Counted from the first letter of the stretch, positions 4,581-51,478 are shown. The stretch is 64,000 bases of DNA from Escherichia phage vB_EcoM_ESCO50 (OM386664.1); one strand, 5' to 3'. The notes: generated by a model not told the origin, from the letters alone. Program-made: numbers and translations.

Positions 4581-5093
4581 TTAATTTTTAAAGATATTCA
4601 GCACCGAATCTTTTAATGATTCCAAGCGTTCTAATACTTCAGATTCTGCGCCTGAATTGCTCACCTCCTCTTTTAGTCTATCCTCTAAATCAACGCCGTC
4701 GCTATAGCACCAATCGAAAGCGTAACCAATAGAAAAACTATCTAAAACCGTTTTTCCGTTTGCGTCTACAACTTTTGCAGATAGGTAATACTCTGAAGCC
4801 TCTAAATCCCTTTTTAGCTCTTCCTGTAAGCTTATGTAAGCCTCACGGGATGGATTTTTCCGGCCTTGTTTTGCATAGTCGCTTGAGAGCTGTTTAAGGC
4901 TGTAATGTAAAGGGATTGCATATTTAAATTCATTGCGTTGATAGTTAGGATTTTTAATAGTCGCACCGCCTTGATGGTCATCTGTAAACTCCCAATTTTC
5001 AAGGGCATGACTTGGTTCATACCAAGTAACAGCCTCATAAATGATTGAGAATTTTTCTTTTACAACTTCAAAGGTAGCGTCTATAGTTTTCAT
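4581..5093 (-). CDS. Hypothetical protein (170 aa)
   Basis: ORF closely following upstream gene. Confidence 0.5.
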   Translation of the reverse strand: MKTIDATFEVVKEKFSIIYEAVTWYEPSHALENWEFTDDHQGGATIKNPNYQRNEFKYAIPLHYSLKQLSSDYAKQGRKNPSREAYISLQEELKRDLEASEYYLSAKVVDANGKTVLDSFSIGYAFDWCYSDGVDLEDRLKEEVSNSGAESEVLERLESLKDSVLNIFKN

Positions 5094-7367: not shown

Positions 7368-7595
7368 TTATAGTTCGGTTTCTCGTAACTCTTTACCTTC
7401 ATCATAGAAGCATTTATAGAATGTGTCTATAGAGATTCTGGCAAAGGTGAGGTCTTCAAAGTATTCCTCTGGAGTTGTCCCTGTAAAACTAAAACTATCG
7501 AGGCTGTAAAATGGTATCACTGTGTCGTGACTCACGAAAACACATGCTGACGTGACTTCTCCAGTATCTTTGTCAATTACCTCTAGAGCTTTCAT
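7368..7595 (-). CDS. Hypothetical acidic protein (75 aa)
   Basis: ORF. Confidence 0.4.
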   Translation of the reverse strand: MKALEVIDKDTGEVTSACVFVSHDTVIPFYSLDSFSFTGTTPEEYFEDLTFARISIDTFYKCFYDEGKELRETEL

Positions 7596-7896
7596 AGCTT
7601 ACCTTTTCGGTTAGTTCATATAAATCAACATGCTCAATGCTGTCAATGTTGATATCAATCTTTTTGAAACGTTCTATCACTTCGTTGGCAGTCATCCATA
7701 TCAGACACCAATGATTCTTGATGGATTCTTCAAGAAGGTCAACACAGTCTTTAAAGGTTTTTGTATCACTCCTTGTTCCGACTACTGCAATTGTCCCATA
7801 TAGCCACTTACCATTGTCATAAGATACTTGTGCTACACCAACCTCTTTATCTTTCTCGTAGTAAACGGCTACAAAGTCTCTTCCATTAATCTGCAT
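7573..7896 (-). CDS. Hypothetical protein (107 aa)
   Basis: ORF. Confidence 0.45.
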   Translation of the reverse strand: MQINGRDFVAVYYEKDKEVGVAQVSYDNGKWLYGTIAVVGTRSDTKTFKDCVDLLEESIKNHWCLIWMTANEVIERFKKIDINIDSIEHVDLYELTEKVSYESSRGN

Positions 7897-35543: not shown

Positions 35544-36344
35544 TTAGTGCAGTTGCTCAGCAGACTCTTTTTCAGCCATAGCTGAGAGTTGCTTCACAAA
35601 ATCATCACCGAAGTTAATGCGAAGTTTCTCTTCAATGATTGAAGCACCAATGTTCACCAAAACATCATTGATTGCTTGCATACTAACACCACCAGTCATC
35701 TCCTCAATGAACTCCATACTCACACCCATCACCTGTGAAAGTTGGATTAGTGCAACGATATTCATCATTGTAGAGATAGCTGGAATCATCAGTGCAACTT
35801 TCACCTGAAGTGGCTCTATATCAGCTACAGAGTCATTCTCAACAGCTTCTTCCAAAGACTCTTTGGTTTGCTGGATAATCTCTTTGATTCGTGGGTTTAA
35901 TTCCTCTACGCCCCAATCAAGCTTTTCATATCGTGACAGCTTTTCTTCCATACGCTTCTCAAGAACAGCCATAACAGCACTCGTTGATGAGATAAGCGTA
36001 TCAATAATGAAATCAGTGTCCTTAGTCAGCAGTAGTTCCTTATCTTCGTCTGACATCCTGATATAGTCATTCTTTTGCATTTCATAAAAAATGAACTCAG
36101 CAAGTGCATCAACACCAACCGCAATAGATGCCAGAGCAAGTGTAGTGTCTGTCAACATCATGTTAACCTGTTCTGCAAAAGCACCGTTATCAGACTTGTC
36201 TTTAGGCAGATTGTAGCTTGCAGGCATAAACTGTTCTGTGTAGTTGTTACCACGAAGAATCATAGCCATGCTTTCTACGGCATTGATTAAGAACGCTTCG
36301 TCAATACCCTTTTCTTCAAGCATCTTTTCTACATCGATATTCAT
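35544..36344 (-). CDS. Hypothetical protein (266 aa)
   Basis: ORF. Confidence 0.5.
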   Translation of the reverse strand: MNIDVEKMLEEKGIDEAFLINAVESMAMILRGNNYTEQFMPASYNLPKDKSDNGAFAEQVNMMLTDTTLALASIAVGVDALAEFIFYEMQKNDYIRMSDEDKELLLTKDTDFIIDTLISSTSAVMAVLEKRMEEKLSRYEKLDWGVEELNPRIKEIIQQTKESLEEAVENDSVADIEPLQVKVALMIPAISTMMNIVALIQLSQVMGVSMEFIEEMTGGVSMQAINDVLVNIGASIIEEKLRINFGDDFVKQLSAMAEKESAEQLH

Positions 36345-36345
36345 A

Positions 36346-36768
36346 TTATTTCTCTCTCAGTTGGTTAAGTTTCTTTCTAGAACATTTTAAGTTTTCTGAT
36401 GAAGAAAAGTCAAGTGTCTTTTCAGAACGTGGATAATAGTGCCTATCCCAAGAAGTTTCAACATCATTAATCAGTGACGCTAGATTACACAGGTCTGTAC
36501 CACTTTGCAACCTCTTTTTAAGAGAATCTAGTAAAGCAACTGTGTCTTTAGCTTTACGTCTCGCTGTAGCAACATCTTTCATATGCTCAAATACAGAGCA
36601 TTTTAAGTCATCTTCATAGTTTTCAGATAACTCTATTTCATGTTGTATATCAACCATTCTCCTGTGATGGTGAGCATATTCCCGTTGAGCAGCAATGTCA
36701 AGTTCTTCCAACTTCTGCAAAGCTCTAACAAAGTCAGCTATGTCTGGGTGAACAAACATTTTCTGCAT
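36346..36768 (-). CDS. Hypothetical protein (140 aa)
   Basis: ORF. Confidence 0.5.
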   Translation of the reverse strand: MQKMFVHPDIADFVRALQKLEELDIAAQREYAHHHRRMVDIQHEIELSENYEDDLKCSVFEHMKDVATARRKAKDTVALLDSLKKRLQSGTDLCNLASLINDVETSWDRHYYPRSEKTLDFSSSENLKCSRKKLNQLREK

Positions 36769-37025
36769 GTAAGCCTCTTTTAAGTAACTATTAAGTTTTA
36801 ATCTTTTATCTTAACGTATTCTATACGTTATACTTTAAAGCTTTTTAAAAACTATTAAATAGTCTTTTAAGAGTTTTAAAGTATCTGTATAGTTAAACTG
36901 TTAAGTAACCTTTTAAGTAAAAACCCACTTCGCAAAGATTAACACCTTGTCAAGTACATTGTCAACTTGCTTTTTATAATTTTTTACAGTAATGTATGAG
37001 ATTAATGATTTAAGAGGGAGTAAAA
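36769..37025. promoter_or_regulatory. AT-rich divergent intergenic region with TTAAGTAA(C) direct repeats and TTGTCAA elements between minus-strand genes and the DNA polymerase
   Basis: Strand switch here; repeats and promoter-like elements read from sequence. Confidence 0.45.
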
Positions 37026-39725
37026 ATGGAAAACGTAGATTTTAAAAACTTACATTTAGTTGGCGATACAGAAACTGATGGTTTGCTCCTTGAGTTCACT
37101 AAAGTGCACGTAATGGCTTTCGCAGACTATAAATCTGACGATGAAGAGCCACCTGTATGGGTCTTTACAGATGAGCCTATCCTCGGTCACAAGTACACTA
37201 AGTACCTTAAGGGTGGTTTACGTGAAGGTGTTGAGTTTGCGTTAAAGGCAAAACGTCTTTGCATCCATAATGGTCTCGGTTATGACTGGTGGGTTTTCAA
37301 TCACATTGCACCGGATTTATGGAACTTTGATAATCCAAAGTGTAAGCCGTGGAGTAATTTCTTTCAGGATTCTCTTATCCAGTCTCGTGTTCAGTGGATG
37401 GATAGGCCAACTCCAAAGGGTTATAAAGGTGCTCATGGTTTGGCTGCATGGGGTGCTCGTGTTGGTGTTCGTAAGCCAGAGATTGAGCATTGGGGTGTGT
37501 GGAATGCAGAAATCTTCACTCGTGTTGTAGATGATATCCGTATTAACGCCAAAACTAAACGGGCACTTGATAACGAGTATCTCAAGCTTAAGAAGTGTGG
37601 CATAGACACTTATGAAACCTACATGCGAGCTAAAGAAACATCTTTCTGGATGAGTCAACAAGCTATCAATGGTTGGAAAGCTGATAAAGAGCTTATGGAG
37701 TTCCATGTGAAGGAACTTGACAAGTTGACTAATGAGCTTGCTTCAGAGGTTGAACCACATCTTCCTCCAACTATTAAGACCAAAGGTAAAGTCACTGGAG
37801 AAGAGTTTGCAAAAGCTTGGAATGAGTATGTTGAAACATTTGGTCATGCAGATGGACTGAAAAGAATTACCAAGTACCCTAAGACAAAGTATCGTCAGCA
37901 GGTACGTAATGGTGAGATGCAGACATACGAAATCAAACCATTTGGTAAGCCAACTACAAAGATTTTTAACATTGAAAAGAGAAATTGCTATACACCAACC
38001 AACTCTGTAACTGGTGAAGAGTACAAGGAAGGTTTTGTAGCAATGAAGGATGCTCGTGCAATTTGCAATGAGTTGAATGCAAAGATTGGTAAGAAGTGCA
38101 AAGACTGGAAGCCAGTAAAAACAGTCAAAACTGTGAAGTATTATAACAGCCACGTTGTTAACCACTTTGAACTTGAGTCAAGTCGCTACACAGGTTTGAT
38201 TGATGCACCATATACACCAATTGAGTTTGAAGTTTCTCGTATGACTCAGGTAGCAGTTGTTAAAGACTACTTGAAATCAGTTGGTTGGATTCCAGATGAC
38301 TGGAACTACAAGAAAGACTCAGACGGTCGCCCTGTCAAAGTTTGTCGTTTCAAAGACAATAAAAAGATGATTACAAAACATCCTAAGTGGCAGGAGATGG
38401 TTGAACGGTGTGGTTTGAGTTATGTTGAACATGAAGGTGTACAGTACATTGAGCATAACTGGTCTGTGAAGAAATACACAGATTTGCTTGAACCTTGCTT
38501 AATCCGTACTTCACCAAAACTTACTGAATCATCTTATGACACGATTGAAGGTGAGCTTGGACAGAAGATTGCGAAATACTACACTTTGATGCACAGACGC
38601 AGAACTATTGAGAACTCAAAGGATGATGAAAAAGGTTGGTTAAACCAGATTCGTCCCGATGGTCGCCTTAGTGCTGGTGCAATGGTGTTTGGTACTTCAA
38701 CTGGACGTATGACACAATATGGTATTGTAAACGTACCATCTGGTGCTGCTGTCTATGGAGCACCTATGAGGGAGGTTTGGACTTGTGAAGATGGTACAGA
38801 TATCATTTCCGTAGACCAAAACTCAGCCCAGCTAGTTCTCCTTTGTAACTTTATGGGTGATGAAGACTTCACTAAAGCGGTAACTGAGGGTAAAGAGTCA
38901 GTAGAGTTCACTAAGCAAGATGATGGTAGATACTACTGTAAGCATCTTGACAAGTATCTTAACCCAGAAACTGACAAGTATCTGCGTTATGATGCTGAAA
39001 ATGACCTCTATGAAGTCTACACAGGGACTGATGCGCATACACTGAACAGTATTTACTTTGGTCTGAACAAAGAAGAAGATATTGTTCGTTGTAGGGAGAC
39101 ACAGGATGAGGAGCTTCTTCACGAGATTACAAAAGGTCGTAAGAAGAGCAAAAATGGCATCTACGCCCTGTTATTTGGAGCCGGAGACGAGAAGTTTGCA
39201 AAAACTATCAAGGCATCATCTACGGAAGAAGGTGCATTGACTAAACAAACTTACTTTGTGCGTCTACCTAAGATTAAAAAGCTGCTTGATAGACTAGAGG
39301 AAGACTTCAAAGCAACTAAGAAAGCACTTGAAGAGGTTTTTGGAAAAACTTCTGCAATTGCGAAAGGTGGGTACATCAAAGTTGCTGGAGCGTGGTTATG
39401 GTGTAAATCTCCACATAAGTTATTGAATTACACACTTATGGGCAGTGAGGCGCAGGTGCAGAATGAGGGTATTAACTTGGCTAACAGAGAGTTAACAGAG
39501 CGTAAGCTTACAGTCCTAAATGGTAGGAAACCAGCTATTGGTGCTAGATGGGTCTGTAGTTACCACGACGAAGTTTCTTTAGAGGTTCCAACAAAAGATG
39601 TACCAGATGTTAAGGAGATTATTGATAGGATGTATGGTCAAGCATCAAAAAATCTTGGATTAAAAAGTAAGACGCTTGTTACAGGCACTGGTAAGGTAGG
39701 TAAGACATGGTACGCCGTACACTAA
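37026..39725 (+). CDS. DNA polymerase, family A, with 3'-5' exonuclease domain
   Basis: Exo I VGDTETDGL; motif A DQNSAQL; motif B KKSKNGIYALLFGAGDEKF (T7 gene 5-like); motif C YHDE. Confidence 0.9.
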   Translation: MENVDFKNLHLVGDTETDGLLLEFTKVHVMAFADYKSDDEEPPVWVFTDEPILGHKYTKYLKGGLREGVEFALKAKRLCIHNGLGYDWWVFNHIAPDLWNFDNPKCKPWSNFFQDSLIQSRVQWMDRPTPKGYKGAHGLAAWGARVGVRKPEIEHWGVWNAEIFTRVVDDIRINAKTKRALDNEYLKLKKCGIDTYETYMRAKETSFWMSQQAINGWKADKELMEFHVKELDKLTNELASEVEPHLPPTIKTKGKVTGEEFAKAWNEYVETFGHADGLKRITKYPKTKYRQQVRNGEMQTYEIKPFGKPTTKIFNIEKRNCYTPTNSVTGEEYKEGFVAMKDARAICNELNAKIGKKCKDWKPVKTVKTVKYYNSHVVNHFELESSRYTGLIDAPYTPIEFEVSRMTQVAVVKDYLKSVGWIPDDWNYKKDSDGRPVKVCRFKDNKKMITKHPKWQEMVERCGLSYVEHEGVQYIEHNWSVKKYTDLLEPCLIRTSPKLTESSYDTIEGELGQKIAKYYTLMHRRRTIENSKDDEKGWLNQIRPDGRLSAGAMVFGTSTGRMTQYGIVNVPSGAAVYGAPMREVWTCEDGTDIISVDQNSAQLVLLCNFMGDEDFTKAVTEGKESVEFTKQDDGRYYCKHLDKYLNPETDKYLRYDAENDLYEVYTGTDAHTLNSIYFGLNKEEDIVRCRETQDEELLHEITKGRKKSKNGIYALLFGAGDEKFAKTIKASSTEEGALTKQTYFVRLPKIKKLLDRLEEDFKATKKALEEVFGKTSAIAKGGYIKVAGAWLWCKSPHKLLNYTLMGSEAQVQNEGINLANRELTERKLTVLNGRKPAIGARWVCSYHDEVSLEVPTKDVPDVKEIIDRMYGQASKNLGLKSKTLVTGTGKVGKTWYAVH

Positions 39726-40210
39726 CACTTCAAGATTACAAGGACAATTTTATTTACGACCCCGACAAAGGGGTCTTCTACAACAAGTATGACAGGAATA
39801 GGCAAGCTAAAGCTGGTCAGGTTGCCGGAGGAAGTGATGCTTATGGTTACAGGGTACTTAAATTCAAAGGTGTTGTAATAAAAGTACATCACCTTGTTTG
39901 GTGGTTTGAGCATGGTTACAAACCTACTAAGATGATAGACCACATTGATGGTAATAGGAGCAATAACCACATTTCTAATCTTAGAGAGGCCGATAAATAT
40001 GGAAACGCTCAAAACAGAGTAAAGCAGACAACTAACAAATCAGGTTACAAGGGTGTATATTACTTTAAAGACTGCAATAAGTGGAGGGCAGCTATAACAT
40101 GCAGAGGTAAAAGGACATCACTTGGTTTATTTGACACACCTGAAGAAGCCCATAAAGCTTACTGTGAAGCTGCTATAAAACTCCACGGAGAGTTTGCAAA
40201 ACTAAGTTGA
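39707..40210 (+). CDS. HNH homing endonuclease with AP2-like domain; overlaps polymerase 3' end by 19 nt
   Basis: HNH motif MIDHIDGNRSNNHISNL; AP2-like GYKGVYYF; paralog of 16452-16943. Confidence 0.75.
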   Translation: MVRRTLTLQDYKDNFIYDPDKGVFYNKYDRNRQAKAGQVAGGSDAYGYRVLKFKGVVIKVHHLVWWFEHGYKPTKMIDHIDGNRSNNHISNLREADKYGNAQNRVKQTTNKSGYKGVYYFKDCNKWRAAITCRGKRTSLGLFDTPEEAHKAYCEAAIKLHGEFAKLS

Positions 40211-40261
40211 CAAGGTGCTCAGGGAAGAGTACCTTATACTATATCTTGTATAGGAGGGCTT

Positions 40262-40480
40262 ATGACACTTTCAGAGATTGAAGTTCAGTTGCAATGTGCT
40301 GGTTATTCTCAAAAAGAGATTGAAGGGATGTTTATTGTTCTTTGCAGTGGTTCTAGAAATTTGAAGGTAAGTCCTGAATTTCTTCGTAGAGTAGATATCT
40401 TTATTGCTGGAGGCAAAATTGCAAAAGACAAGACAGGGTACTTAAAAGGTGAACGTATTGATATTCTGGAGTTGATATGA
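40262..40480 (+). CDS. Hypothetical protein (72 aa)
   Basis: ORF with GGAGGG RBS. Confidence 0.45.
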   Translation: MTLSEIEVQLQCAGYSQKEIEGMFIVLCSGSRNLKVSPEFLRRVDIFIAGGKIAKDKTGYLKGERIDILELI

Positions 40481-40746
40481 ATAGTTTGTATAGTCTCTGG
40501 AGAAGGGTTATGTGGAAAGCAGTAATTGCACTTGGTGTTATTTTTCTATCTGGCTGCAATCCTTCTTATGAAGATAAAAATGCTTCTTACAGTCTCCCAC
40601 CAGAGATGCAAGATTGCATAGTCTATGAGTTATATGGTGATACTACAAGTAGAGATATTGTTGTTGTAAGATGTCCAAACTCTCAAACAACAACATCTTA
40701 TAGCTATGGCAAAAATGGCCAATCACATACTACGGTTATTGAGTGA
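40477..40746 (+). CDS. Putative lipoprotein (89 aa)
   Basis: Signal peptide with lipobox FLSGC. Confidence 0.45.
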   Translation: MNSLYSLWRRVMWKAVIALGVIFLSGCNPSYEDKNASYSLPPEMQDCIVYELYGDTTSRDIVVVRCPNSQTTTSYSYGKNGQSHTTVIE

Positions 40747-40756
40747 GGTTTTCACG

Positions 40757-40963
40757 ATGGAAGTCCTAGTAAACTATATCTATCGTTATGATGTTGTTCA
40801 CTCCACTACAACCATAGCTCAACGTAATCCAATCGTCCCACGAGAAGGTGAGTTTGTTCGCATTGAGGGTTGGACTTACACTGTGGAAAGCATCATTCAT
40901 AAGTTTGATGTTGCTGGCGATGTTCAAGTTATCGACGTAGAAATTGGTAGTAAGAGAAAATGA
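40757..40963 (+). CDS. Hypothetical protein (start placed at MEVLVNY; track ORF begins at 40706)
   Basis: ORF; GAGG RBS before the internal ATG. Confidence 0.4.
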   Translation: MEVLVNYIYRYDVVHSTTTIAQRNPIVPREGEFVRIEGWTYTVESIIHKFDVAGDVQVIDVEIGSKRK

Positions 40964-42060
40964 CAACACTGTACAAACAAAATAAAGATGGCTCTTTCAA
41001 CGTCTGGTCATGTACTGCTGTAGGTGATAAAGTTATTACAACCTACGGTAAAGAAAATGGCAAGATGATGTTTGAAGAGTATACAGCAGAACCTAAAAAC
41101 ATCGGTAAAAAGAATGAGCGTAATGCTGAACAGCAAGCCCTCTTTGAAGTTGCTGCTAAGTATAAAAAGCAAGTTGACCGTAAAGGGTATGCTTACACAA
41201 AAGAGTCTGCACAGAATACTGAGAAGGTAGGTGTACAGCTTGCTCATGATGCTGCAAAGGTTAGCCATGCAAAGTATCTGAAGTTCCCTGCTGATGCTCA
41301 ACCAAAGCTTGATGGTGTCCGTTGTAGAATTTCAAGAGATGCTGATTCAGTTAGTTTCACAGCTTATTCTCGTGAGAATACTGTTTACAACGTTCCAGCA
41401 GAACTAATCCCAGATTTGCTTTTGTTGCTTAAATTACATCCACAAGTTGAAGACTTTGACGGAGAGATTTATGCTCATGGTTGGGACTTAGAAGATATTG
41501 TGTCTATGATTAAGAATGCTGACAATCCAGACCGTCACCTTCTTAAATTCTACTGGTATGATACCTGTGACAATTCAAAATCTTGGCCTGAGCGTCGTGA
41601 AGTTATTGATAACTCACCCATTGTTGAACTTGGGGATACCTGTAGAGTGGTTCCTGTACAGACTATCCGTGTAAATTCTTGGGAAGAGTTTGACGAAGCT
41701 CATGATAAGTGGGTTGAAGCTAAGTTTGAAGGTGCAATGTACCGTTCAATCTCTGAAGACTCCTTCTATGAGTGTTGTCACCGTTCATACTTCTTGATTA
41801 AGCACAAGAAGATGCACACTGAAGAGTTTAAAGTGACTGGTGTCAAGACCGATAAGCGTGGTCATGGTAAGTTCGTTGTAGAGACTCTTCCTAACGTCTT
41901 TGTAGATGTCTCATGGAAGACTACTCATGAGAAGAAACAGTATCTTGCTGAACATCCTGAAGAGTTTATCGGGAAACCTTTAACAGTTCAGTTCCAGAAG
42001 ATGACTCGTAAGGGTTCTTTACAGTTCCCTGTTGGGCTAGTTATTCGAGATTACGAATAA
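40960..42060 (+). CDS. lig: ATP-dependent DNA ligase
   Basis: Adenylation motif KLDGVR (KxDG); 366 aa. Confidence 0.8.
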   Translation: MTTLYKQNKDGSFNVWSCTAVGDKVITTYGKENGKMMFEEYTAEPKNIGKKNERNAEQQALFEVAAKYKKQVDRKGYAYTKESAQNTEKVGVQLAHDAAKVSHAKYLKFPADAQPKLDGVRCRISRDADSVSFTAYSRENTVYNVPAELIPDLLLLLKLHPQVEDFDGEIYAHGWDLEDIVSMIKNADNPDRHLLKFYWYDTCDNSKSWPERREVIDNSPIVELGDTCRVVPVQTIRVNSWEEFDEAHDKWVEAKFEGAMYRSISEDSFYECCHRSYFLIKHKKMHTEEFKVTGVKTDKRGHGKFVVETLPNVFVDVSWKTTHEKKQYLAEHPEEFIGKPLTVQFQKMTRKGSLQFPVGLVIRDYE

Positions 42061-42067
42061 AAAGTTG

Positions 42068-42095
42068 TTGACATAGAAAATTTGGTGAGTATACT
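42068..42095 (+). promoter_or_regulatory. Sigma70-like promoter TTGACA-N16-TATACT just after the ligase stop, driving transcription into G-rich element A
   Basis: Consensus hexamers read from sequence. Confidence 0.6.
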
Positions 42096-42149
42096 GAGCA
42101 GCATAAACCGACGGGTACTCACCAGCATCACTTAAGAGTCTTATAAGAG

Positions 42150-42266
42150 GGTTTTTAAGTGATGTAATGTAAGGCAAGGCAAGGCAAGGTGGGGTGTGGT
42201 CTGGCCAGGTTAGGTTCGGTGATGTCAGGTATGGGTAGTTAGTCTCAGCTACATTAAAATGAGACT
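42150..42266 (+). other. G-rich 5-nt-periodic element A ((CAAGG)4 then NNNGG pentamers) ending in hairpin AGTCTCA-GCTACATTAAAA-TGAGACT plus T-run; candidate structured ncRNA or DNA element
   Basis: Pentamer periodicity and terminal hairpin read from sequence; no ORF. Confidence 0.5.
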
Positions 42267-42289
42267 TACCTTTTTAAAAGGTCTTTAAG

Positions 42290-42412
42290 AGGGTTTTTTA
42301 ATGAGGTAGGGTAAAGTAATGCTTGGTCTGGTTTGGTAAGGCGCGGTCTGGTTTGGTAAGGTAAGGTTCGGTATGGTGTGGGTGGATGGTAGTAGCCACA
42401 TTAAAAATCTAC
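42290..42412 (+). other. G-rich 5-nt-periodic element B (GGTNN pentamers) ending in hairpin GGTAG-TAGCCACATTAAAAATC-TACC
   Basis: Second copy; same leader AAAAGGTCTTTAAGAGGGTTTTTTA, same loop, different stem. Confidence 0.5.
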
Positions 42413-42471
42413 CAAGTTTCTAAAGAGTCTTCTGTTGAGGGTTCTTTACAAACAACTTAACAATAAACTAA

Positions 42472-43520
<1,049 letters not shown>

Positions 43521-43531
43521 GTTGACTAGGT

Positions 43532-43555
43532 AGCCTCTTCGGAGGCTCCTTTTTA
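43532..43555 (+). terminator. Rho-independent terminator AGCCUC-UUCG-GAGGCU followed by UUUUU
   Basis: Tetraloop hairpin plus U-tract after stop of gene 43074-43520. Confidence 0.6.
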
Positions 43556-43574
43556 AAAGGTCTTTAAACAGGGT

Positions 43575-43679
43575 CTTTTAGTAAGGCATGGCTAGGTGAG
43601 GTCTGGTAGGGTAGGGTGAGGTGGGGTTGGGTTGGGTTTGGTATGGAAGGATGGCAGTAGCCTTATAAAAAATCTGCCA
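43575..43679 (+). other. G-rich 5-nt-periodic element C (includes GGGGTTGGGTTGGGTTTGG) ending in hairpin GGCAG-TAGCCTTATAAAAAATC-TGCC
   Basis: Third copy; conserved leader and loop, compensatory stem. Confidence 0.5.
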
Positions 43680-43770
43680 AATAAGCTATAAAATCTGTTG
43701 ACAAGTCAGGTGTTATAGCTTATTTTTATACTCAACGTAATACAAAATTTAATATAACTTTGAGGTCATT

Positions 43771-44154
43771 ATGAAAAAGATTTTATTAGCTACTGCAATG
43801 GTTATGGCAATGAATTTACCAGTCAATGCAACAGAACTTCCAAATGTGAACTTATCAGGTGTTCCAGAAGACACTTGCCAGATTGTTAAAGGTGTTGCTC
43901 TATATAGAGGTGAGCTGCTTAAACCAATCTCTGAAGAGTCTTTAACAGAGATGACTGATAAGGTAACTGACTACCAGTATCGTGTTCTTGCAGAGTATTT
44001 CCTGCAATCTGCAAACATTAAAGAGAAACACCATGACGATATTGATGTACAGGCGATGCTCAATCACCGTATCCAGTTTAAAGAAGATTTGATGCAAAAA
44101 GCTATGTATGGTGTTGAGTATTTCTTAGAAAACAGAAGCTGCACAGGTATTTGA
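43771..44154 (+). CDS. Hypothetical secreted protein (127 aa) with N-terminal signal peptide
   Basis: MKKILLATAMVMAMNLPVNA signal-like N-terminus; GAGG RBS. Confidence 0.5.
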   Translation: MKKILLATAMVMAMNLPVNATELPNVNLSGVPEDTCQIVKGVALYRGELLKPISEESLTEMTDKVTDYQYRVLAEYFLQSANIKEKHHDDIDVQAMLNHRIQFKEDLMQKAMYGVEYFLENRSCTGI

Positions 44155-44155
44155 T

Positions 44156-44368
44156 ATGGCTCTTAAAAAGTTACATCCCAGAAGCGGTTATGGTAAGATA
44201 ATTGACGATACAGACGGCTTTACAGTCTTTACAGTCATCTGTCAAGATGATTCACAGATTGAAAAGGTTCTTGACGATTATCTTAATGATGAACGTGAAA
44301 AGGTTAGGGCTACAAACATAGATTCATTAATTGACACTTCACGCAAACGGAAGAAGAAAGATGAATGA
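44156..44368 (+). CDS. Hypothetical protein (70 aa)
   Basis: ORF. Confidence 0.45.
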   Translation: MALKKLHPRSGYGKIIDDTDGFTVFTVICQDDSQIEKVLDDYLNDEREKVRATNIDSLIDTSRKRKKKDE

Positions 44369-44660
44369 GGTTTTTGACCCTTATGCCCCACAAGATGATT
44401 GGGAGGCTGATAGAGAGGCTGAAATGGAGAGTTATATTTGTCCAATGGATGTAGACGAAATGAGAGACTTCGTTGCACATCGTTTTAAGAGAGAGATTAA
44501 ATCCAGAGGTCTTTCTCAAGAGCAAGTTGCTAAAATTTGTGGTATCTCTCAGGCTCGTGTGTCCAACATAATCCATCTCACTGGTAACGTCTCCCTTGAG
44601 TATATGTTGGAAGTATGTGAAAAATTTGGTGTTAATTTTAATTTAAGGTTGGCAGATTAA
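44361..44660 (+). CDS. Helix-turn-helix DNA-binding protein (start at ATGA overlap; track ORF starts at 44331)
   Basis: C-terminal HTH-like LSQEQVAKICGISQARVSNI. Confidence 0.45.
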   Translation: MNEVFDPYAPQDDWEADREAEMESYICPMDVDEMRDFVAHRFKREIKSRGLSQEQVAKICGISQARVSNIIHLTGNVSLEYMLEVCEKFGVNFNLRLAD

Positions 44661-44661
44661 T

Positions 44662-45021
44662 ATGAAACGTGAAAACATTATCTACTCTGAAAACTTCGCA
44701 TTAGGCTTTTACGGTGTACCTACTCACCTTGAAAAGTATTATGGTGTAAAGATTCTTTCCAATCTTATTATGGCTTACAAAGATGGTAAGATTAAGCATA
44801 CTGAGAAGAAACGTGTCATGGGTTATATGGCTGTAGGTTCAGCAATCTCGAACATTAAGTTGGAAACAACTAGCAGTCAGATTGTGAAAGACCACTTCAT
44901 CAAAGAGCTTTACCAGAATCTTGATGGTGTAGATGTTCAGGCTGTTTGGCTGGATGTTGATGGTCACAACTACACAAGTTTTGTTTTCAAAAACGATGAC
45001 ATTAAGTGCTTGTTCCCATAA
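44662..45021 (+). CDS. Hypothetical protein (119 aa)
   Basis: ORF. Confidence 0.5.
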   Translation: MKRENIIYSENFALGFYGVPTHLEKYYGVKILSNLIMAYKDGKIKHTEKKRVMGYMAVGSAISNIKLETTSSQIVKDHFIKELYQNLDGVDVQAVWLDVDGHNYTSFVFKNDDIKCLFP

Positions 45022-45034
45022 TAGGTGATTAACT

Positions 45035-45550
45035 ATGATTGATATCTTCTTACAAGATGCTCATGCAGATTTCCTTAAAGAGATGCTTAAAAAGTTTATG
45101 GCTTCACAGTATGAGAATGAAGCATCTTTTAAAATAGTTACATGTGGCGATGAAGCTGGTTTTGTTGAGATTGAACATGAAGGTACTGGAAAGACTGTTT
45201 GTAAACTACCTGATAGTATGTTCTCTAACACATTCTTAACAAAGACTAGTATAAATGTTAAGCTTGTACCGCAGATTGAAACATACTCTGGTACAGATTA
45301 CCCTAAAGGTTTCAAGTCACTGATGAAGTATTTCTTAGATGACTTTGTGGGTAATCTTCTGAGGGAGGTAAAAGAAAGTCGTACAGTGTTAACTGTAGAG
45401 AATATAGGAGACACTATAAGGGTCACTTCTGACTGTTTTGTTATGAGCCTCTTCGACTTCGTTCCTAAGAACTTTGATGGTATTCTGGATGAAGAAGATG
45501 ACTGTGTAGACTTTATATTGGTTCTTGAACCAGTTTTTGAGGTTAAATAG
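45035..45550 (+). CDS. Hypothetical protein (171 aa)
   Basis: ORF. Confidence 0.5.
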   Translation: MIDIFLQDAHADFLKEMLKKFMASQYENEASFKIVTCGDEAGFVEIEHEGTGKTVCKLPDSMFSNTFLTKTSINVKLVPQIETYSGTDYPKGFKSLMKYFLDDFVGNLLREVKESRTVLTVENIGDTIRVTSDCFVMSLFDFVPKNFDGILDEEDDCVDFILVLEPVFEVK

Positions 45551-45811
45551 ATGAAAATTGAACACTGCTATGGGTCTGACGGAACACCTATCCGATGTCC
45601 ACATTGTGGGTGTACAGACTTACAAGGTGAGGTAAGTGAAATAGTCAACGGTCATATTGCTGAAGAGAGTACAAGGTGTACAGGATGTAATGAAATCATT
45701 GCTTTCTGGGCTTATGGTTCATACCAACCTACACCACACTTAATCTACCATAGCAATAAAGCTGTGAAGAATGTTATCAACTGGTTTATTAAGAAAGGAT
45801 TTACAAAATGA
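45551..45811 (+). CDS. Small zinc-ribbon protein (CPHCGC...CTGC)
   Basis: Two Cys pairs. Confidence 0.45.
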   Translation: MKIEHCYGSDGTPIRCPHCGCTDLQGEVSEIVNGHIAEESTRCTGCNEIIAFWAYGSYQPTPHLIYHSNKAVKNVINWFIKKGFTK

Positions 45812-46353
45812 TTAAATTAATCTTTGCAAGTGGTGAAAATGGAGAGTTTGGTACTCCAACTGGTATGCCGTGGCCTCGACATAAGCAAGATATGCAAGAG
45901 TTTAAGAGACTCACTAAAGACAACTTAGTAGTTATGGGTAATGAGACTTTTAAGACTCTAGGTAGTAAGCCTTTACCAGAACGTGAAAATCTTATCTTAA
46001 CAAACTCTGTTCCATATTTGGGTATAGACTTTGACAAAGACGATGTAATGTATGCTAAGGCTAGTAAAGAGTCCTTTGGAGCATTTTTGAAGTATCTTGA
46101 TAGCTCTATTGATGAAGATGTCTTTGTAATTGGTGGTGCAGGTGTTCTTGTCGATGCTTTGCCGTATGCTGGTGTAGTTTTCCATACAGTTTTCCATAAA
46201 GTTACTGAAGAGGCCACTGTGTATTTACCTTTTGAAAACTTCTTCGATAAACTGTATGATAGCCGTGTATTTGCAAAGGTGCAGTCAAGACCTTCAGATG
46301 ATGGTAAAGCAACCTTTGAGATTTATGTTCCACAAGTAAAAGGACACTTTTGA
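45808..46353 (+). CDS. folA: Dihydrofolate reductase
   Basis: N-terminal IFASGENGEFG...MPW pattern typical of DHFR; directly upstream of thymidylate synthase. Confidence 0.7.
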   Translation: MIKLIFASGENGEFGTPTGMPWPRHKQDMQEFKRLTKDNLVVMGNETFKTLGSKPLPERENLILTNSVPYLGIDFDKDDVMYAKASKESFGAFLKYLDSSIDEDVFVIGGAGVLVDALPYAGVVFHTVFHKVTEEATVYLPFENFFDKLYDSRVFAKVQSRPSDDGKATFEIYVPQVKGHF

Positions 46354-46354
46354 T

Positions 46355-47254
46355 ATGTCACAAGCTGATTTGAGTTACAAAAATATCCTGAACCATGTTT
46401 TATCCGTTGGCGAACTGCGTACTACACGAACTGGAGATGTTATCTCTGCATTTGCTCCACCACAATTTCGTTTTGATATGAGAACTGGTTTCCCACTCTT
46501 AACATCTAAACAGGTTTTTACACGGCAAGTTATTGGGGAAGCTTTATGGTTCCTGAATGGTGAGAATAAACTTGGTGAACTCCGTTATCGTACTTGGGGT
46601 GAAAATGATGGGGAACGCTGGACTATCTGGTCAGATGATTTTAAACGCTGGTTAAGTTCTAATTATTCTTCTGAACAAGATTGGTTAGAAGATGCAGGTG
46701 GGAGAATCTATGGGGTCCAGTGGAGAAACTTTGAAGGTCATAATGGTTGTGTTGTAGACCAGTTAGAGACCTTAGTAACGAAGATGAAAGGTGATATCAC
46801 AGACCGTTACATGCTTGTTAATGCTTGGAATGCAGCAGATATTGCAGCCAACTCGATGGCTTTAGCGCCTTGTCATGTTCTGTTTCAGATTTATATCACT
46901 AACGAAGGTGAAGTTGACTTACAATGGTATCAACGTTCTGTAGACACCTTTTTAGGACTTCCGTTTAACATTGCATCTTATGGTTTTATTCTGGAAGTTC
47001 TTTGCAAGATGACTGGATACACTCCACGGTACTTGATAGGCGTCTTTGGAGATACTCAGATTTATCAGAACCATATGAAGCAGGTTTATGAACTGATGAA
47101 CAATGAAGAGTTTCATGCACCTACTTTTGAGATTGGTGTGCAGCTTAATACTCTAAGTGATTTAAAACATCTTACTGCAAGTGATTTTATTGGTGGCATT
47201 AACAACTACCAACATGCAGGGAAGATTGAAGCACCCCTGTCAGTAGGTAAGTAA
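46355..47254 (+). CDS. thyA: Thymidylate synthase
   Basis: Active-site ALAPCHVLFQ (PCH); 299 aa. Confidence 0.9.
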   Translation: MSQADLSYKNILNHVLSVGELRTTRTGDVISAFAPPQFRFDMRTGFPLLTSKQVFTRQVIGEALWFLNGENKLGELRYRTWGENDGERWTIWSDDFKRWLSSNYSSEQDWLEDAGGRIYGVQWRNFEGHNGCVVDQLETLVTKMKGDITDRYMLVNAWNAADIAANSMALAPCHVLFQIYITNEGEVDLQWYQRSVDTFLGLPFNIASYGFILEVLCKMTGYTPRYLIGVFGDTQIYQNHMKQVYELMNNEEFHAPTFEIGVQLNTLSDLKHLTASDFIGGINNYQHAGKIEAPLSVGK

Positions 47255-47295
47255 AACAAAAAAGGCTCCCGTAAAAAGGAGCCTTAAAATTTTAT
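47255..47295. terminator. Bidirectional rho-independent terminator (GGCUCC...GGAGCC flanked by A-run and U-run) between converging thyA and minus-strand genes
   Basis: Inverted repeat with A/T runs on both sides at the strand switch. Confidence 0.6.
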
Positions 47296-47297
47296 TT

Positions 47298-47663
47298 TCA
47301 GTGTTCTTCTGTATTCTTCTCAGTAATAGCTTGGAGGGCTGATACTGATTGAGCCAGATTATTCACACTGTCAGAGAATTTATCAAGAGTTTTGGTAAGT
47401 TTTGCGTTTTCACCCTTAACATTCTCTAACTGAACTTTCTGGTTCTCCATCCCTAACTGAAGCAATCTCATGTCAGACTGTAAATCACGAATAGCTGAAT
47501 AGTTACTACTTGTGTAATTATCCAACTGTTGTAACTTTGTTTTGACAGACACCTCTTGTTTACCACTTGACACTTGCATGGTGGTATACATTCCGATAAC
47601 ACTAAAAATACCAACTACAATTGCACCAATATTATTTTTAAAAGCTTCCTCTAGCCACTTCAT
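47298..47663 (-). CDS. Membrane-anchored coiled-coil protein (121 aa); possible lysis-associated protein
   Basis: N-terminal TM IGAIVVGIFSVIGMY then heptad-like region; follows tail fibre genes. Confidence 0.4.
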   Translation of the reverse strand: MKWLEEAFKNNIGAIVVGIFSVIGMYTTMQVSSGKQEVSVKTKLQQLDNYTSSNYSAIRDLQSDMRLLQLGMENQKVQLENVKGENAKLTKTLDKFSDSVNNLAQSVSALQAITEKNTEEH

Positions 47664-47858
47664 TTATTTCTCCCCCTTAAAAGCTTTTTCTAAGTTATCT
47701 ACGAACTCATCATCAATAGGTGTGTCTGTTTTACTCGCAAGATATCTTGCAAGCTTAAAGAACACTTTCTCAATCATGTATTCACTTAGAAGGGATAAAA
47801 TGAGCTTCCAGAAGAAGCTACCTAGATTTTTTAGAAGAATTGCTAGGATTGTAGGCAT
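47664..47858 (-). CDS. Small membrane protein (64 aa); holin-like candidate
   Basis: Hydrophobic N-terminal helix, charged C-terminus. Confidence 0.35.
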   Translation of the reverse strand: MPTILAILLKNLGSFFWKLILSLLSEYMIEKVFFKLARYLASKTDTPIDDEFVDNLEKAFKGEK

Positions 47859-47937: not shown

Positions 47938-50283
47938 TTAAGCAGTTCTTACCCAAGCCATCAGCTTATAGAACTGGTTAGTAACACTAAATGCTGAACC
48001 AGAGCCTGTACCGCCAGTGTTACCGCTTACTGTATGGGTGTGAGCACCAATACCAACACTGTGAGCATGGTTACCATTTGATGCAGCAGTACCAGAGATT
48101 GTGTGGGTGTGAGCACCAGCAGAATCAGTGTAACCCGGTCCTGTACCGATTCTACCACCACCACCGCCAGAATAGTGTGTAGAGTTCTGACCAATCCATG
48201 AGATAGCGTGGTTGTGGTTACCAGCAGATGAAGTAGAACCACTTACAGAGTGTGTGTGAGCACCAGTCGTGTTAGTGTTTTTTGTTCCGTAGTCAAACGA
48301 TGAGGTAGTCGCAGAAAAACTGTGCGTGTGTGAAGGTAAGTTTCCAACTGCTAACGTAACAGAATCTGAACCACCTGTTGTAGCAACATCTGAACCGTTT
48401 GCTGCTGCAATTCTGATAGTTCTACCAACACCATTGTTCAGATACGTCCAAGTTAGACCAGGCAGTGCTGTATTAGGGTCAACATTACTGTTAAACCACG
48501 TTACAATACCTACTGGATAGATTTTATTCAGGTCTGTAGAGTCACTTACTGCCTGCGCAATCTTCTGGTCAGTTTCTGCTTTAGTGTATGCGCCAATATC
48601 TGAAGGGGTTGGTTTAAATGCCGTTGAATACAACTGTGCCTCTCCAACATATTCTCCATCTGACCCATAAGCATATGTGAAGACATCAAGACCTCTAGAC
48701 CCATATGTAAAAGCAATGCCTCTGGCATGAGCAATACCAGCAGAGTGTGCTACATGGATGGCTAAATCTTTCAGACCCTGCTCAATATCGTTATTTCTTA
48801 CAAACCCTGAATAATCTTTATTGAATGACGCTGTGTCCTCCAACCTATTAGTTGTCCTTACCATTAAAGATTGGTTTAGCAGTTTTGTTTTTAAGAAATA
48901 CCTAGCATCTAAGTTAGACCAATCAGAAGGCTGTACTTGTCCAGTGATTTTGACAGTTTTATTCAACAAGAAATCATCTTGCATATAAATCGTAGTTAAA
49001 GTTCTGTCGTTGTGGATAATAAGCCTTGTTGGGTTGTCTCTTTCCCCGCTACCAATGTACCATCTTCTCGCATTATCAGCATTATAACCACCAATATATA
49101 GCTCATTGTCTTGTGTGGTGTTCTTTAGCCGTAACAGTGAGCCATTCTGGTTGATAACTTGCGCAGACCTGAAAGTGTTTACATCACTTAGCTTAGCAAG
49201 ATTACTCAAAGTCCCTGCCGGAATATATCTAGAGTCAATGTTAGTCCAGTCAGAAGGTTGTACTTGACCAGTTACAGTTAGTGTTTTATTGATATCAACA
49301 CTTGTCCCTACAGTAATTTTGCCACTAGTTTTGTAGTTTTCTAGAGCTACGTTATCACCTCCATTATTATTACCAATGTACCATCTGTTGGCACCTGTGC
49401 TATCAATCGCTTTAATGTACAATGGTTGTGCAGCATTGGCATTCTGTAGCCTAATTACTTCACCATCTTTTTTGAAAACATTTAGTTGGTTGAAAGTGTT
49501 AGAGCCACTAAAAGTATTATCAGCAGTTAACTGTGCAAATCTCTGATTAGCTACTGTCTGAGTGAAGTATCTAGCATCTAAGTTAGAGAAGTCCGAAGGT
49601 TGAACTTGGCCAGTGATTTGAATTGATTTATTCACAGAGATTAGGTTAGCTAAAATCGCTACGTATGCACCAGATTTAACGTTTTTTAAAACAAGGTTGT
49701 CTGTGTTTCTATTATCATTACCTAGATACCATCTGTTAGTGCCATCTGCATCTTGACCACGAATATAGAGTGGCATCCCTTGTGTGATATTCTTAAAAAT
49801 AAGGGCTTCATTGTCAGAGAGAATATTTTGAGTCCCAGAGAATGTGTTTGTTACAGCAAGCCTTGCATATCTTGCATCATTTTCTTCATTAGTTCTCATC
49901 CCAAGTTCATTAGGACTTGGTTTATTCAAAGTATGATAAACAGTTGCCGACCTTGAAGCATCTGCAATAGTTAGTTTAAGACCATTTGCGTTAATTTTAA
50001 AAGTCTTTAAAACATCCCCAATAGTAATCTCAGAAGAGCCTGTTGGGTCAAATACTGCCTTACCACCATAAAGTAACTTAACAATCCCTAAGTCACCCGT
50101 CATAGTGCTACCAGCAATCTGAACAAATCTTTCAAGTTTAAAAGATGCTAAGAAGTCTTGATAGGTCATTCGACGGTCTTCATCACCCAGCATTTCAGGT
50201 CTCTTTTTAACTCTGACATGAAGAAGGTCGTCTGAACGAATTGTATCAATTGAGTTTAATTCACTCAACTTGTAATCTGCCAT
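47938..50283 (-). CDS. Tail fibre protein (781 aa) with internal repeats and C-terminal His-x-His-rich module
   Basis: Repeated TGQVQPSD(W/F)(S/T)N(L/I)D(A/S)RY units; RWY(I/L)G motifs like T7 gp17; C-terminus HTHSF...HNHAI...HTHTI...HAHSV ending WVRTA. Confidence 0.7.
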
Positions 50284-50329
50284 TATAAATTTTCCTCTTA
50301 AAAGGGGCTATACAGCCCCTGTAAAGAAA

Positions 50330-51478
50330 TTAAGCTGTTCTCTGCCATACATACAATACGAAGGATGGCTGTTCAACGCTAAATGCTTGACCAGAACCAG
50401 TTGTGCCAGTTGTGCCAGAGTGCGAATGCTCACCTGCTCCGGTTACTGTTACTGTTGCTGAGTGGTTGTGGGAGCCAATTGCAACAGAATGACTGTGAGC
50501 ACCAATCTCAACTGTGTGATTATGCGCACCAATTGCTACAGAGTGAGTGTGGTTGTTAGCTGTTGTCAGTGTAGCTCTCGGGTCATAGCTTGCCCCCTCA
50601 ACTGATAAACCTCTCCAACCACCATCAGCATAACCACGATTAATGAATGTTGTTTGTGTTAAACCAGCAGCACTGGTTGTTCTGTTACCATAGTCATAAG
50701 TAGATACAGTCTTTGTTCCATAGTCAAACGTTGTAGTCCCTTTAGTACCGTAGTCAAAAGCACTGATAGAGGCCGTTGCACCGTGTGTGTGACCACCACC
50801 AGTGACGTATACTGAGTGAGTATGTGCAGGAATGTTGTTAACTGTCAGTGCAGTAGTCTGCGAACCAAACGTTGAACCAACTGGCCTAGAAGCACTATCA
50901 TAACCTACAAGTGCTCTTCCTTTTGAAACTAACTCCCAAGTACCTCCACAAATTAAATATGTAGAAGGGTTTGCAGGATTCATAGAGAGATGGATAGTGC
51001 CTACTGGATAAGAAGCCTGAACAGCCTTGTACAAGTTATTTACTGCTCTTGCTGTAGCATACTTATCTGCATCCTCATTATAAAGGTTAGATGTCACCCA
51101 GTTCTGGACATTACTTAACCCAACCTGTGCCTTAGTGGTGTTGTGTGGGTTACTCTTATCATCAATATGCTGTTGAATAAGATTATTAACCTCTTCTGAA
51201 GACATAATCTGTAGATTTGCTCTTGCCTCAGCTACATTAACAATGTCTGATAAGTTATTTTCAGCAACTAACTGGAGAGCATTAATAACGTTATCTAAAC
51301 CAATTTGTGTCTTAGTAACACCATGAGGGTTATTTCTTAGGCTTGAGTGTGGAGCAAGTAATTGCTCAAGAGTACATCTCTTATCCTCGATACCCTGTTT
51401 AAGATGGAAGATATCACTAAGGTCAATTGGTAAGGCTGCTTGAGGCAAGGCACTAATTTGAATTTCACCTACTGCCAT
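50330..51478 (-). CDS. Second tail fibre protein (382 aa) sharing the C-terminal His-x-His module
   Basis: HTHSV...HTHGA...HNHTV...HSHSV ending ...QAFSV..P.F.L..W.RTA as in the 781 aa fibre. Confidence 0.65.
   Translation of the reverse strand: MAVGEIQISALPQAALPIDLSDIFHLKQGIEDKRCTLEQLLAPHSSLRNNPHGVTKTQIGLDNVINALQLVAENNLSDIVNVAEARANLQIMSSEEVNNLIQQHIDDKSNPHNTTKAQVGLSNVQNWVTSNLYNEDADKYATARAVNNLYKAVQASYPVGTIHLSMNPANPSTYLICGGTWELVSKGRALVGYDSASRPVGSTFGSQTTALTVNNIPAHTHSVYVTGGGHTHGATASISAFDYGTKGTTTFDYGTKTVSTYDYGNRTTSAAGLTQTTFINRGYADGGWRGLSVEGASYDPRATLTTANNHTHSVAIGAHNHTVEIGAHSHSVAIGSHNHSATVTVTGAGEHSHSGTTGTTGSGQAFSVEQPSFVLYVWQRTA

Follow-up and report, generated by a model that had tools for sequence, protein, structure and literature searches.

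Background

Felixounaviruses are Felix O1-like myoviruses that infect Escherichia, Salmonella and Shigella. We studied a pair of adjacent tail fibre genes at positions 47,938 to 51,478 of a 64,000-nucleotide stretch of DNA from Escherichia phage vB_EcoM_ESCO50 (OM386664.1); this whole stretch is called the window hereafter and all positions are counted from its first letter. The fibres of phage Bas63 (Escherichia phage JohannRWettstein, Sci Adv 2025, PMC12609058), which shares with this phage the genus, the gene order and the number of His-x-His (HxH) motifs (seven in the short tail fibre (STF) and six in the long tail fibre (LTF)), were described by cryo-electron microscopy (cryo-EM) combined with AlphaFold 3, and have the same tip of collar, needle and head in which the chain doubles back. 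That paper covers the tips, the HxH counts, the fold-back, the shaft repeats and the genus-wide variability of the tips (PMC12609058). Fibre trimers are visible in the maps of Bas63 (PMC12609058) and also in those of phage Sf14, for which a 2025 paper described two retracted fibres of 430 and 630 Å. Homology to the T4 gp37 adhesin at the C-termini of both fibres of a Felix O1-like phage was first reported for gp74 and gp75 of phage VpaE1 (Viruses 2015, PMC4690856); as here, the VpaE1 fibres combine conserved N-termini with variable C-termini (PMC4690856). Since it has been published for VpaE1 in 2015 and for Sf14 and Bas63 in 2025, the architecture of these fibres is already known.

In the tip of T4 gp37, as in the Bas63 fibres, the chain runs from a collar along a needle to a head and back to the collar (PMC12609058). 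Each T4 HxH motif, contributed by three chains, holds one iron ion, seven ions are arranged along the needle and the histidines are essential. T4 host-range mutations are located in the head of this homologous tip, at residues 938-955. T7 gp17 has one copy of a so-called pyramid domain, followed by a receptor-binding C-terminal tip domain. Adhesin genes 37 and 38 of T-even phages were reportedly found by Tétart, Krisch and co-workers, in 1996-1998, to be exchanged by recombination between conserved motifs.

By inspection of the sequence, an original prediction had proposed that the two genes encode tail fibres with a shared HxH-rich tip, acquired by recombinational exchange of receptor-binding modules. 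Here, we report the homologies of both fibres, the alignment of their HxH motifs to the metal sites of T4, a map of their variability among homologues and the exchange of tip cassettes in their relatives.

Results and discussion

Two felixounavirus tail fibres with T4 gp37-type tips

Judged by homology, the two open reading frames (ORFs) are the LTF and STF genes of a Felixounavirus, orthologous to gp27 and gp26 of Bas63 respectively, which agrees with their prediction as tail fibres:

47938..50283, minus strand: LTF gene (ORF call; 781 amino acids plus stop; PHROG 4277, tail fiber, over the full length)
50330..51478, minus strand: STF gene (ORF call; 382 amino acids plus stop; PHROG 2097, tail fiber)

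The region is matched by 269 phage records at 80-99% nucleotide identity, nearly all of them Felixounavirus, and the LTF is 100% identical to the deposited 'tail fibers protein' of Escherichia phage vB_EcoM_ESCO50. Global identity to Bas63 is 72.1% for the LTF (784 amino acids in Bas63, 781 here), the parts of the LTF tip being 83-100% identical to gp27, and 97.9% for the STF (382 amino acids in both).

The account that we favour, with a rough probability of 0.85 for the whole, is that both fibres have T4 gp37-type tips, with their specificity in heads encoded in the middle of the tip module, and that cassettes of such tips are exchanged in relatives. Each fibre would be a homotrimer with an N-terminal baseplate-binding region, a shaft and, at its C-terminus, a receptor-binding tip of the T4 gp37 type; the LTF shaft would consist of three T7 gp17 pyramid-like repeats of ~110 amino acids and a Mu gpS-like unit, and that of the STF would be short and helical. 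From the collar, the chain would descend along the needle as a β-strand, form a small head and return up the needle, so that the needle of the trimer would be six-stranded and the last ~20 residues would lie at the collar. Inward-facing HxH motifs of three chains would form one octahedral metal site (Fe in T4), and these sites would stiffen the needle, six of them being predicted for the LTF and seven for the STF. Receptor specificity would reside in the head, and the conserved motif-coding DNA on both of its sides would serve as homology for recombination, by which, in other felixounaviruses, needle-plus-head cassettes have passed from one fibre gene to the other and been exchanged with T4-type gene 37. 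We rely on the literature for the trimer, the fold-back topology, the sites of baseplate attachment and the iron in T4; the metal occupancy and the receptors of the two fibres studied here are inferred from this literature and from homology.

The T4 comparison starts from the composition of the C-terminal modules. As expected from the original prediction, their His-rich stretches are rich in Gly, Ser and Thr (54% of the LTF stretch and 44% of the STF stretch, compared to 28-30% of the whole proteins); His makes up 11.8% and 9.9% of them. Six HxH motifs occur in the LTF (at residues 652, 676, 690, 725, 739 and 748) and seven in the STF (at 219, 230, 310, 319, 328, 337 and 351), counts that none of 5000 composition-preserving shuffles reached. 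The T4 gp37 tip structure 2XGF is matched by the LTF and the STF both as single sequences (E 3.7e-18 and 2.8e-13) and as family profiles (E 1.8e-21 and 2.2e-24), and the six HxH motifs of the LTF pair one-to-one with the iron-binding T4 motifs at 883, 915, 929, 966, 980 and 989, which bears out the suggestion that this region is of the T4 fibre tip kind. The limits of the T4 domains used here come from our own alignment and from papers citing the T4 structure work. To each other, the modules of the LTF and the STF are homologous but distant, with 31% identity over about 257 columns in BLASTP (E 2e-16). The predicted parts of the two tips are:

48334..48558, minus strand: LTF collar, residues 576-650, aligned to the 2XGF collar and invariant across LTF relatives
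48208..48333, minus strand: LTF needle, descending strand, residues 651-692, with HxH 652, 676 and 690 and a FDYGTK motif
48112..48207, minus strand: LTF head (apex) cassette, residues 693-724, the most variable part of the tip
48004..48111, minus strand: LTF needle, ascending strand, residues 725-760, with HxH 725, 739 and 748
47941..48003, minus strand: LTF C-terminal tail, residues 761-781, conserved to 100% across LTF relatives
50825..51058, minus strand: STF collar, residues 141-218, matching Pfam Gp10_C (E 8.5e-18; 66.1 bits, cut-off 27)
50693..50824, minus strand: STF needle, descending strand, residues 219-262, with HxH 219 and 230 followed by three FDYG[TN][KR]-type repeats
50552..50692, minus strand: STF head (apex) cassette, residues about 263-309, the most variable STF segment
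50399..50551, minus strand: STF needle, ascending strand, residues 310-360, with HxH 310, 319, 328, 337 and 351 in 9-residue IGAHxHxV repeats
50333..50398, minus strand: STF C-terminal tail, residues 361-382, GSGQAFSVEQPSFVLYVWQRTA

The likeness to T4 gp37 thus comprises the collar, the predicted six-stranded needle with HxH metal sites and mid-module head, and a similar C-terminal ending. The position of the LTF tail and its hydrophobic and R-x-A pattern are those of the T4 gp37 end (...NIAFNYIVRLA), and the STF collar has matches in the Protein Data Bank (PDB) to the C-terminal domain of T4 gp10 (2FKK and 5HX2) as well as to 2XGF. The two fibres also differ from T4 in a number of ways. T4's seventh HxH (998) has no counterpart in the LTF, which has GNTGGT there, and the STF needle has a 2+5 layout of its HxH motifs, extra FDYG repeats and a TxT in place of the HxH beside the head. 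T4 gp37 matches the Pfam family 'Collar', whereas the collars here match Gp10_C; the heads of this genome are unrelated to that of T4 gp37; and each fibre would be a single protein placed directly on the baseplate, whereas T4 gp37 is the distal quarter of a four-protein fibre.

Beside the STF head, T274-Q-T276 (window 50651-50659) replaces the HxH that most relatives have, as it does in Bas63 gp26. The column of residue 276 holds a His that is at least 90% conserved in the family, and one metal site near the STF apex appears to be lost. At the corresponding place beside the LTF head, Bas63 has HHxH and this phage NHNH.

A probable mid-module position of the apex

If the chain doubles back as described for Bas63, the apex is expected to be encoded mid-module and not at the C-terminal end. 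Position by position, identity to the query drops to 0.38 at LTF residues 701-720 among 119 LTF homologues, and to 0.12-0.35 at STF residues 261-320 among 71 STF homologues. Conservation reaches 99-100% in the LTF collar (581-660) and tail (761-781), and the STF tail is conserved as much as the rest of the STF, with E369, Q370, S372, Y376, W378 and R380 invariant in the family. This combination of a variable centre with a conserved collar and tail fits a fold-back tip. By analogy with T4, receptor contact would lie in the head (LTF 693-724, STF about 263-309), and the tail would be scaffold.

The original prediction had considered the C-termini of the two fibres near-identical. A conserved motif is indeed present in both, but only 12 of the last 22 residues are identical. 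Conservation of the kind expected from an assembly domain unrelated to receptor binding is nearly what the C-terminal tail displays, but it does not extend to the module as a whole.

Tip cassettes are exchanged among relatives

The LTF family has four main head types, one of which is that of the LTF studied here, and the STFs have more than 20. Comparison with relatives, which the original prediction had recommended to look for tip swapping, revealed such swapping in two independent metagenomic contigs (L003 and L007, from ERZ28588151 scaffold_300 and ERZ16021073 NODE_738), in phages UAB_Phi87 and Felix O1, and between T4 and phage REP6. In L003, a 278-bp tract is 100% identical between the STF and LTF genes (4748-5025 and 7386-7663), and in L007 a 282-bp tract (4748-5029 and 7386-7667). 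The flanks of these tracts are 91-93% identical between the two contigs and the cassettes themselves only about 77%; identical cassettes within differing contigs are the pattern that gene conversion would be expected to leave. In cultured phages, the STF and LTF cassettes of UAB_Phi87 are 91% identical over 200 bp, and those of Felix O1 (NC_005282.1; STF nucleotides 748-1017, LTF nucleotides 1990-2259) 81% over 270 bp, with head peptides that are nearly identical between the two fibres of each phage. On these identities, the matches in cultured phages are older versions of the exchange found in L003 and L007. FDYGTK marks the left border of the cassettes, and HSHTxSG or GIGAHxHTV the right one.

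A T4-like head, 65-79% identical to that of T4, is present in both LTFs and STFs. At the nucleotide level, positions 2692-2978 of T4 gene 37 are 84-89% identical to some felixounavirus LTF genes, among them record L001 and that of REP6 (88.9% over 287 bp). This segment encodes amino acids 898-993 and coincides with the classical T4 specificity region, residues 907-996. T4-like heads therefore point to cassette transfer between Straboviridae and Ounavirinae. The phages that carry them include isolates from E. coli B or BL21, namely VpaE1 and IME338 (isolated on BL21); VpaE1, the LTF of which has a T4-like head, is restricted to E. coli B, whereas this genome has a pair of heads associated with K-12. 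A 'GGRYGG' head occurs in 78 records, 70 of which are Salmonella phages, and most of these records have it at two sites in the genome. STF and LTF carry the same 'GGRYGGDSIGGK..' head, at 81-91% nucleotide identity within the genome, in Felix O1 and most Salmonella felixounaviruses. Thus, tip-cassette exchange is real in the felixounavirus relatives, and the type of head goes with the host used for isolation (K-12, Salmonella or E. coli B).

This exchange resembles the mosaicism of T-even genes 37 and 38, in that segments of variable specificity are flanked by conserved, repeated motif-coding sequences, which are possible sites of recombination. It differs in that the exchange links the two paralogous fibre genes within a single genome and, moreover, reaches across Ounavirinae and Straboviridae. 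The underlying principle, recombination at conserved motifs of T-even fibres, is old; a paper on cassette conversion between STF and LTF genes was not found in the searchable literature.

Weighing the account: structural evidence and the fibre shafts

A number of points weigh against the account given above. The STF monomer model (AlphaFold 2, from a 38-sequence alignment) has a mean predicted local distance difference test (pLDDT) score of only 56.8, with needle and head below 60, and its Foldseek search against the PDB returned only non-significant gp10 matches. The density of the Bas63 fibres in cryo-EM is too weak for side chains (PMC12609058), and therefore metal sites have not been directly seen in any felixounavirus fibre. 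That the tail would pack against the collar is based on the Bas63 paper and the T4 analogy. The LTF collar scores 22.5 bits against Pfam Gp10_C, below the cut-off of 27. Both 100%-identical tracts in relatives come from metagenome assemblies that are unvalidated at read level. Finally, the variable shaft repeats could also aid host recognition, as the authors of the Bas63 paper raise (PMC12609058).

As to the model, only the collar (pLDDT 73-84) and the last ~12 residues (C-terminal tail, 72-81) are confident, and metal sites cannot be read from a single-chain prediction when the chains of the trimer intertwine. Since needle and head are unreliable, neither the model nor its Foldseek search was used as evidence on topology. 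An assembly artefact as the origin of the two tracts is unlikely: they were found in two samples, in differently named assemblies and with different cassettes, and cultured phages have such matches at 81-91%.

The possible role of the shaft in host recognition requires a closer look at the LTF upstream of its collar, which is divided as follows:

49897..50283, minus strand: residues 1-129, N-terminal baseplate-binding region and first shaft unit, ending in KPSPNELG...DARY
49567..49896, minus strand: repeat 1, residues 130-239, T7 gp17 pyramid-like (E 3e-28 to repeat 2; Pfam PF20744)
49225..49566, minus strand: repeat 2, residues 240-353 (motif and BLAST), its core being the most variable shaft segment
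48898..49224, minus strand: repeat 3, residues 354-462 (motif and BLAST)
48559..48897, minus strand: residues 463-575, fourth interval of ~110 amino acids, Mu gpS-like and not a copy of the repeat

Residues 1-129 are 94-100% identical to the query over about 119 homologues and 97% identical to Bas63 gp27; the baseplate-binding role of this domain is taken from the cryo-EM of Bas63 (PMC12609058). Four copies of a ~110-residue unit had been predicted in the LTF. The unit itself is confirmed, but the number of its copies is three by motif, BLAST and profile. TGQVQPSD[WF][ST]N[LI]D[AS]RY occurs three times (at residues 224, 338 and 447), as does RWY[IL]G (at 184, 300 and 407), and only D[AS]RY alone is found four times. 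The three repeats are pairwise 38-44% identical (BLAST, E 1e-22 to 3e-28), and three copies are likewise detected at the DNA level, with spacings of 327 and 342 nucleotides. Three copies are present in the LTFs of 152 out of 154 relatives, and four in that of one distant relative. Residues 20-129 and 463-580, the flanks of the repeats, did not match the family-wide repeat profile (hhalign probability below 1%), and together with pairwise BLAST this profile comparison rules out a fourth or fifth sequence repeat. The predicted count of four probably originates from five junction motifs of the (K/Q)P(S/T)..(D/E) type, which bound four intervals of ~110 amino acids; the last of these, residues 463-575, is delimited by a degenerate junction motif, KPTPSDIG, and its residues 476-575 match the tail fibre S/S' of Mu (8JU3) in a family profile search (E 1.7e-9). 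The Bas63 paper counts five β-helix repeat domains by structure, whereas the sequence studied here supports three homologous copies.

The resemblance of RWY[IL]G to T7 gp17, also suggested beforehand, proved correct. A profile of 31 repeat units matches the gp17 pyramid domain (4A0U, 4A0T and 7BOZ; E 4.3e-8 to 6.2e-8) over gp17 residues about 368-435, with RWYiG opposite the NWYIG of T7, and in the full-length LTF family profile residues 381-450 align to 4A0T/4A0U (E 2e-4). In contrast to T7 gp17, the LTF has three such copies in tandem as a shaft and a gp37-type tip; PDB profile searches did not detect a T7-like tip domain in it. Pfam PF20744 ('Tail fibre protein gp37 trimerization region') matches residues 130-462 (E 1e-59). 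Because T4 gp37 itself does not match this family at E up to 0.01, we set its name aside as a sign of T4 gp37 homology; such a name can mislead annotation. No T4 gp34 match was found for the LTF in Pfam (Gp34_trimer; structure 5NXH) or PDB profile searches at E up to 1, and the likeness of the Bas63 LTF shaft to gp34 rods has been reported at the level of structure only (PMC12609058).

Among relatives, the cores of the repeats (LTF 141-220, 261-340 and 381-440) are about as variable as the head and the junctions between them are nearly invariant. In the core of repeat 2 (residues 261-340), identity to the query is only 0.38-0.46, its junction motif being conserved. The shaft has also diverged from that of Bas63, to which repeat 1 is 60%, repeat 2 49% and the Mu S-like unit 35% identical.

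This variability leads to a different explanation, in which the HxH module would mainly be a scaffold for folding or trimerisation, the shaft repeats of the LTF would bind glycans side-on and the apex would be of minor importance. The variable cores of repeats 1-3, with repeat 2 as their extreme, are what it would lead one to expect; moreover, the central region of the VpaE1 LTF was reported to be highly variable (PMC4690856), and the Bas63 authors, who note the same variability of the shaft repeats and leave it unexplained, list variable host recognition among the options (PMC12609058). However, it is the heads that form discrete cassettes tracking the isolation host, and it is these head cassettes, not the shaft repeats, that were exchanged between fibres and with T4. 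Host-range mutations of T4 map to the head as well, and the STF, which is without such repeats, nevertheless has the same pattern of variability at its tip. We therefore regard a mainly structural role of the module as improbable and retain the reading in which specificity resides in the mid-module heads.

The STF upstream of its collar is shorter:

51059..51478, minus strand: STF residues 1-140, baseplate-binding region and helical shaft

Helices are predicted by AlphaFold 2, with low confidence, at residues 37-46, 67-76, 82-88, 94-106 and 132-156. A motif NPHxxTKxQ[IV]GLxNV occurs twice in this shaft, at residues 50-64 (51287-51331) and 110-124 (51107-51151). The STF family profile matches 9ZD7, a chain named 'short tail fiber gp92', in three stretches (E 1.1e-14) and hence, as far as such profile matches indicate, the helix-turn unit of the STF shaft is common to fibres of other phages.

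The two fibres of this genome have different heads

It had been predicted that both fibres of this phage share one tip. In that case, a recent recombination between the two genes would have placed the same tip on both, and both fibres would bind the same receptor. The modules are indeed homologous and have the FDYGTK, IGAHxH and AFSV...W.RTA motifs in common, and the arrangement with one head exists in Felix O1, UAB_Phi87 and most Salmonella felixounaviruses, as in the identical cassettes of L003 and L007. Nevertheless, the heads of this genome do not follow it. When the LTF head (693-724) was compared with the STF head (about 263-309; YGNRTTSAAGLTQTTFINRGYADGGWRGLSVEGASYDPRATLTTANN), 717 of 1000 shuffled sequences scored at least as high. 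Between the two genes, the best DNA alignment spans 48 bp at 75% identity and gives no hint of recent exchange; DNA and shuffle comparisons together rule out such an exchange between the two fibre genes of this genome. A 52% match of the core of this LTF tip to STFs of other phages lies in the needle flanks, not in the head. The part that the two C-termini do share, their tail, is a conserved and not a variable part, and every record that has one of the two head cassettes has it at a single site in the genome. One tip on both fibres is thus highly unlikely for this phage, and the predicted recombinational exchange of receptor-binding modules applies to the phage group, by the cassettes of its relatives, and not to recent events in this genome.

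What the two fibres share here, on the comparisons above, is the scaffold of collar, needle and tail, at 31% identity, and not the apex. Phage records with the LTF head type number 45, Bas63 included, and nearly all are of phages with E. coli K-12 hosts. That of the STF is found in 41 records, nearly all K-12 isolates, and is 100% identical to the head of Bas63 gp26; it falls in only three of the clusters at 90% identity, being highly conserved and not rare. As these 45 and 41 records are essentially the same K-12 phages, the two different heads travel as a pair. Since the two heads are unrelated, this phage most likely presents two different receptor specificities. Bas63 requires an intact K-12 lipopolysaccharide core; neither a PhageMaP preprint on Bas63 nor a 2026 receptor-screen preprint contained fibre-specific functional data.

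Neighbouring genes

The two fibre genes follow, on their upstream side, a Baseplate_J wedge protein, a 285-amino acid baseplate protein and a 100-amino acid ORF. The order baseplate J-like protein, 285-amino acid baseplate protein, 100-amino acid ORF, STF, LTF, small ORFs and thymidylate synthase (on the opposite strand) is the same in Bas63, Felix O1, momo and metagenomic felixounavirus contigs. Two small ORFs lie downstream of the LTF gene, neither of which is gp38-like (T4 fibre chaperone):

47664..47858, minus strand: 64-amino acid ORF directly downstream of the LTF gene, with homologues matching Pfam PF26925 (Phage_PM2_Gpl)
47298..47663, minus strand: 121-amino acid ORF with a hydrophobic N-terminal segment, of membrane and coiled-coil character, labelled 'holin' in relatives

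Neither fibre has a Peptidase_S74 or other chaperone-type Pfam domain at E up to 0.1, and both C-termini align instead to the end of the T4 gp37 tip. The idea that the last ~20 residues act as an intramolecular chaperone or as the place where a separate adhesin or chaperone docks, with another protein as the true receptor binder (cf. gp38 and fibres of the T2/S16 type), is scarcely credible: the tail is extremely conserved, T4 gp37 needs gp38 (annotated 'assembly catalyst for gp37') and gp57A for its folding and two small ORFs are at hand, but an autocleaving chaperone domain needs more than 20 residues, such a domain was not found, the ORFs encode the 64-residue and 'holin'-annotated proteins just described, each fibre is one protein in the Sf14 paper and that genome has no homologues of the Mu chaperone, and trimers of gp26 and gp27 alone account for the density of Bas63 (PMC12609058).

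GC skew in the window is positive only at about 36-47 kb (about 36000-47300) and negative elsewhere; in 43.8-47.3 kb the positive skew coincides with plus-strand genes, dihydrofolate reductase and thymidylate synthase included, beside the minus-strand structural genes. A few records labelled as Campylobacter or Staphylococcus phages closely match felixounavirus fibre genes and are probably mislabelled or contaminated database entries.

Conclusions

For this genome itself the findings are of little import, its fibre proteins being identical or nearly identical to deposited ones. For engineering and the prediction of host range, they imply that the apex would be encoded within the HxH module (LTF 693-724, STF about 263-309) and that the C-terminal end would be scaffold, and the natural borders FDYGTK and HSHTxSG/GIGAHxHTV mark where heads can be swapped. 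The contrast between felixounaviruses with one head and those with two, and the tracking of the host by head type, may merit a focused comparative study.

With about even odds, concerted evolution may link the STF and LTF genes, by conversion of a needle-plus-head cassette of ~200-280 bp that has conserved motif-coding DNA at its borders and is also traded with T4-type gene 37. If so, lineages would switch between a state with one head on both fibres, represented by Felix O1, most Salmonella phages and the two contigs with identical tracts, and a state with two different heads, represented by this genome and about 40 E. coli K-12 phages, and would in effect alternate between single-receptor and dual-receptor attachment.

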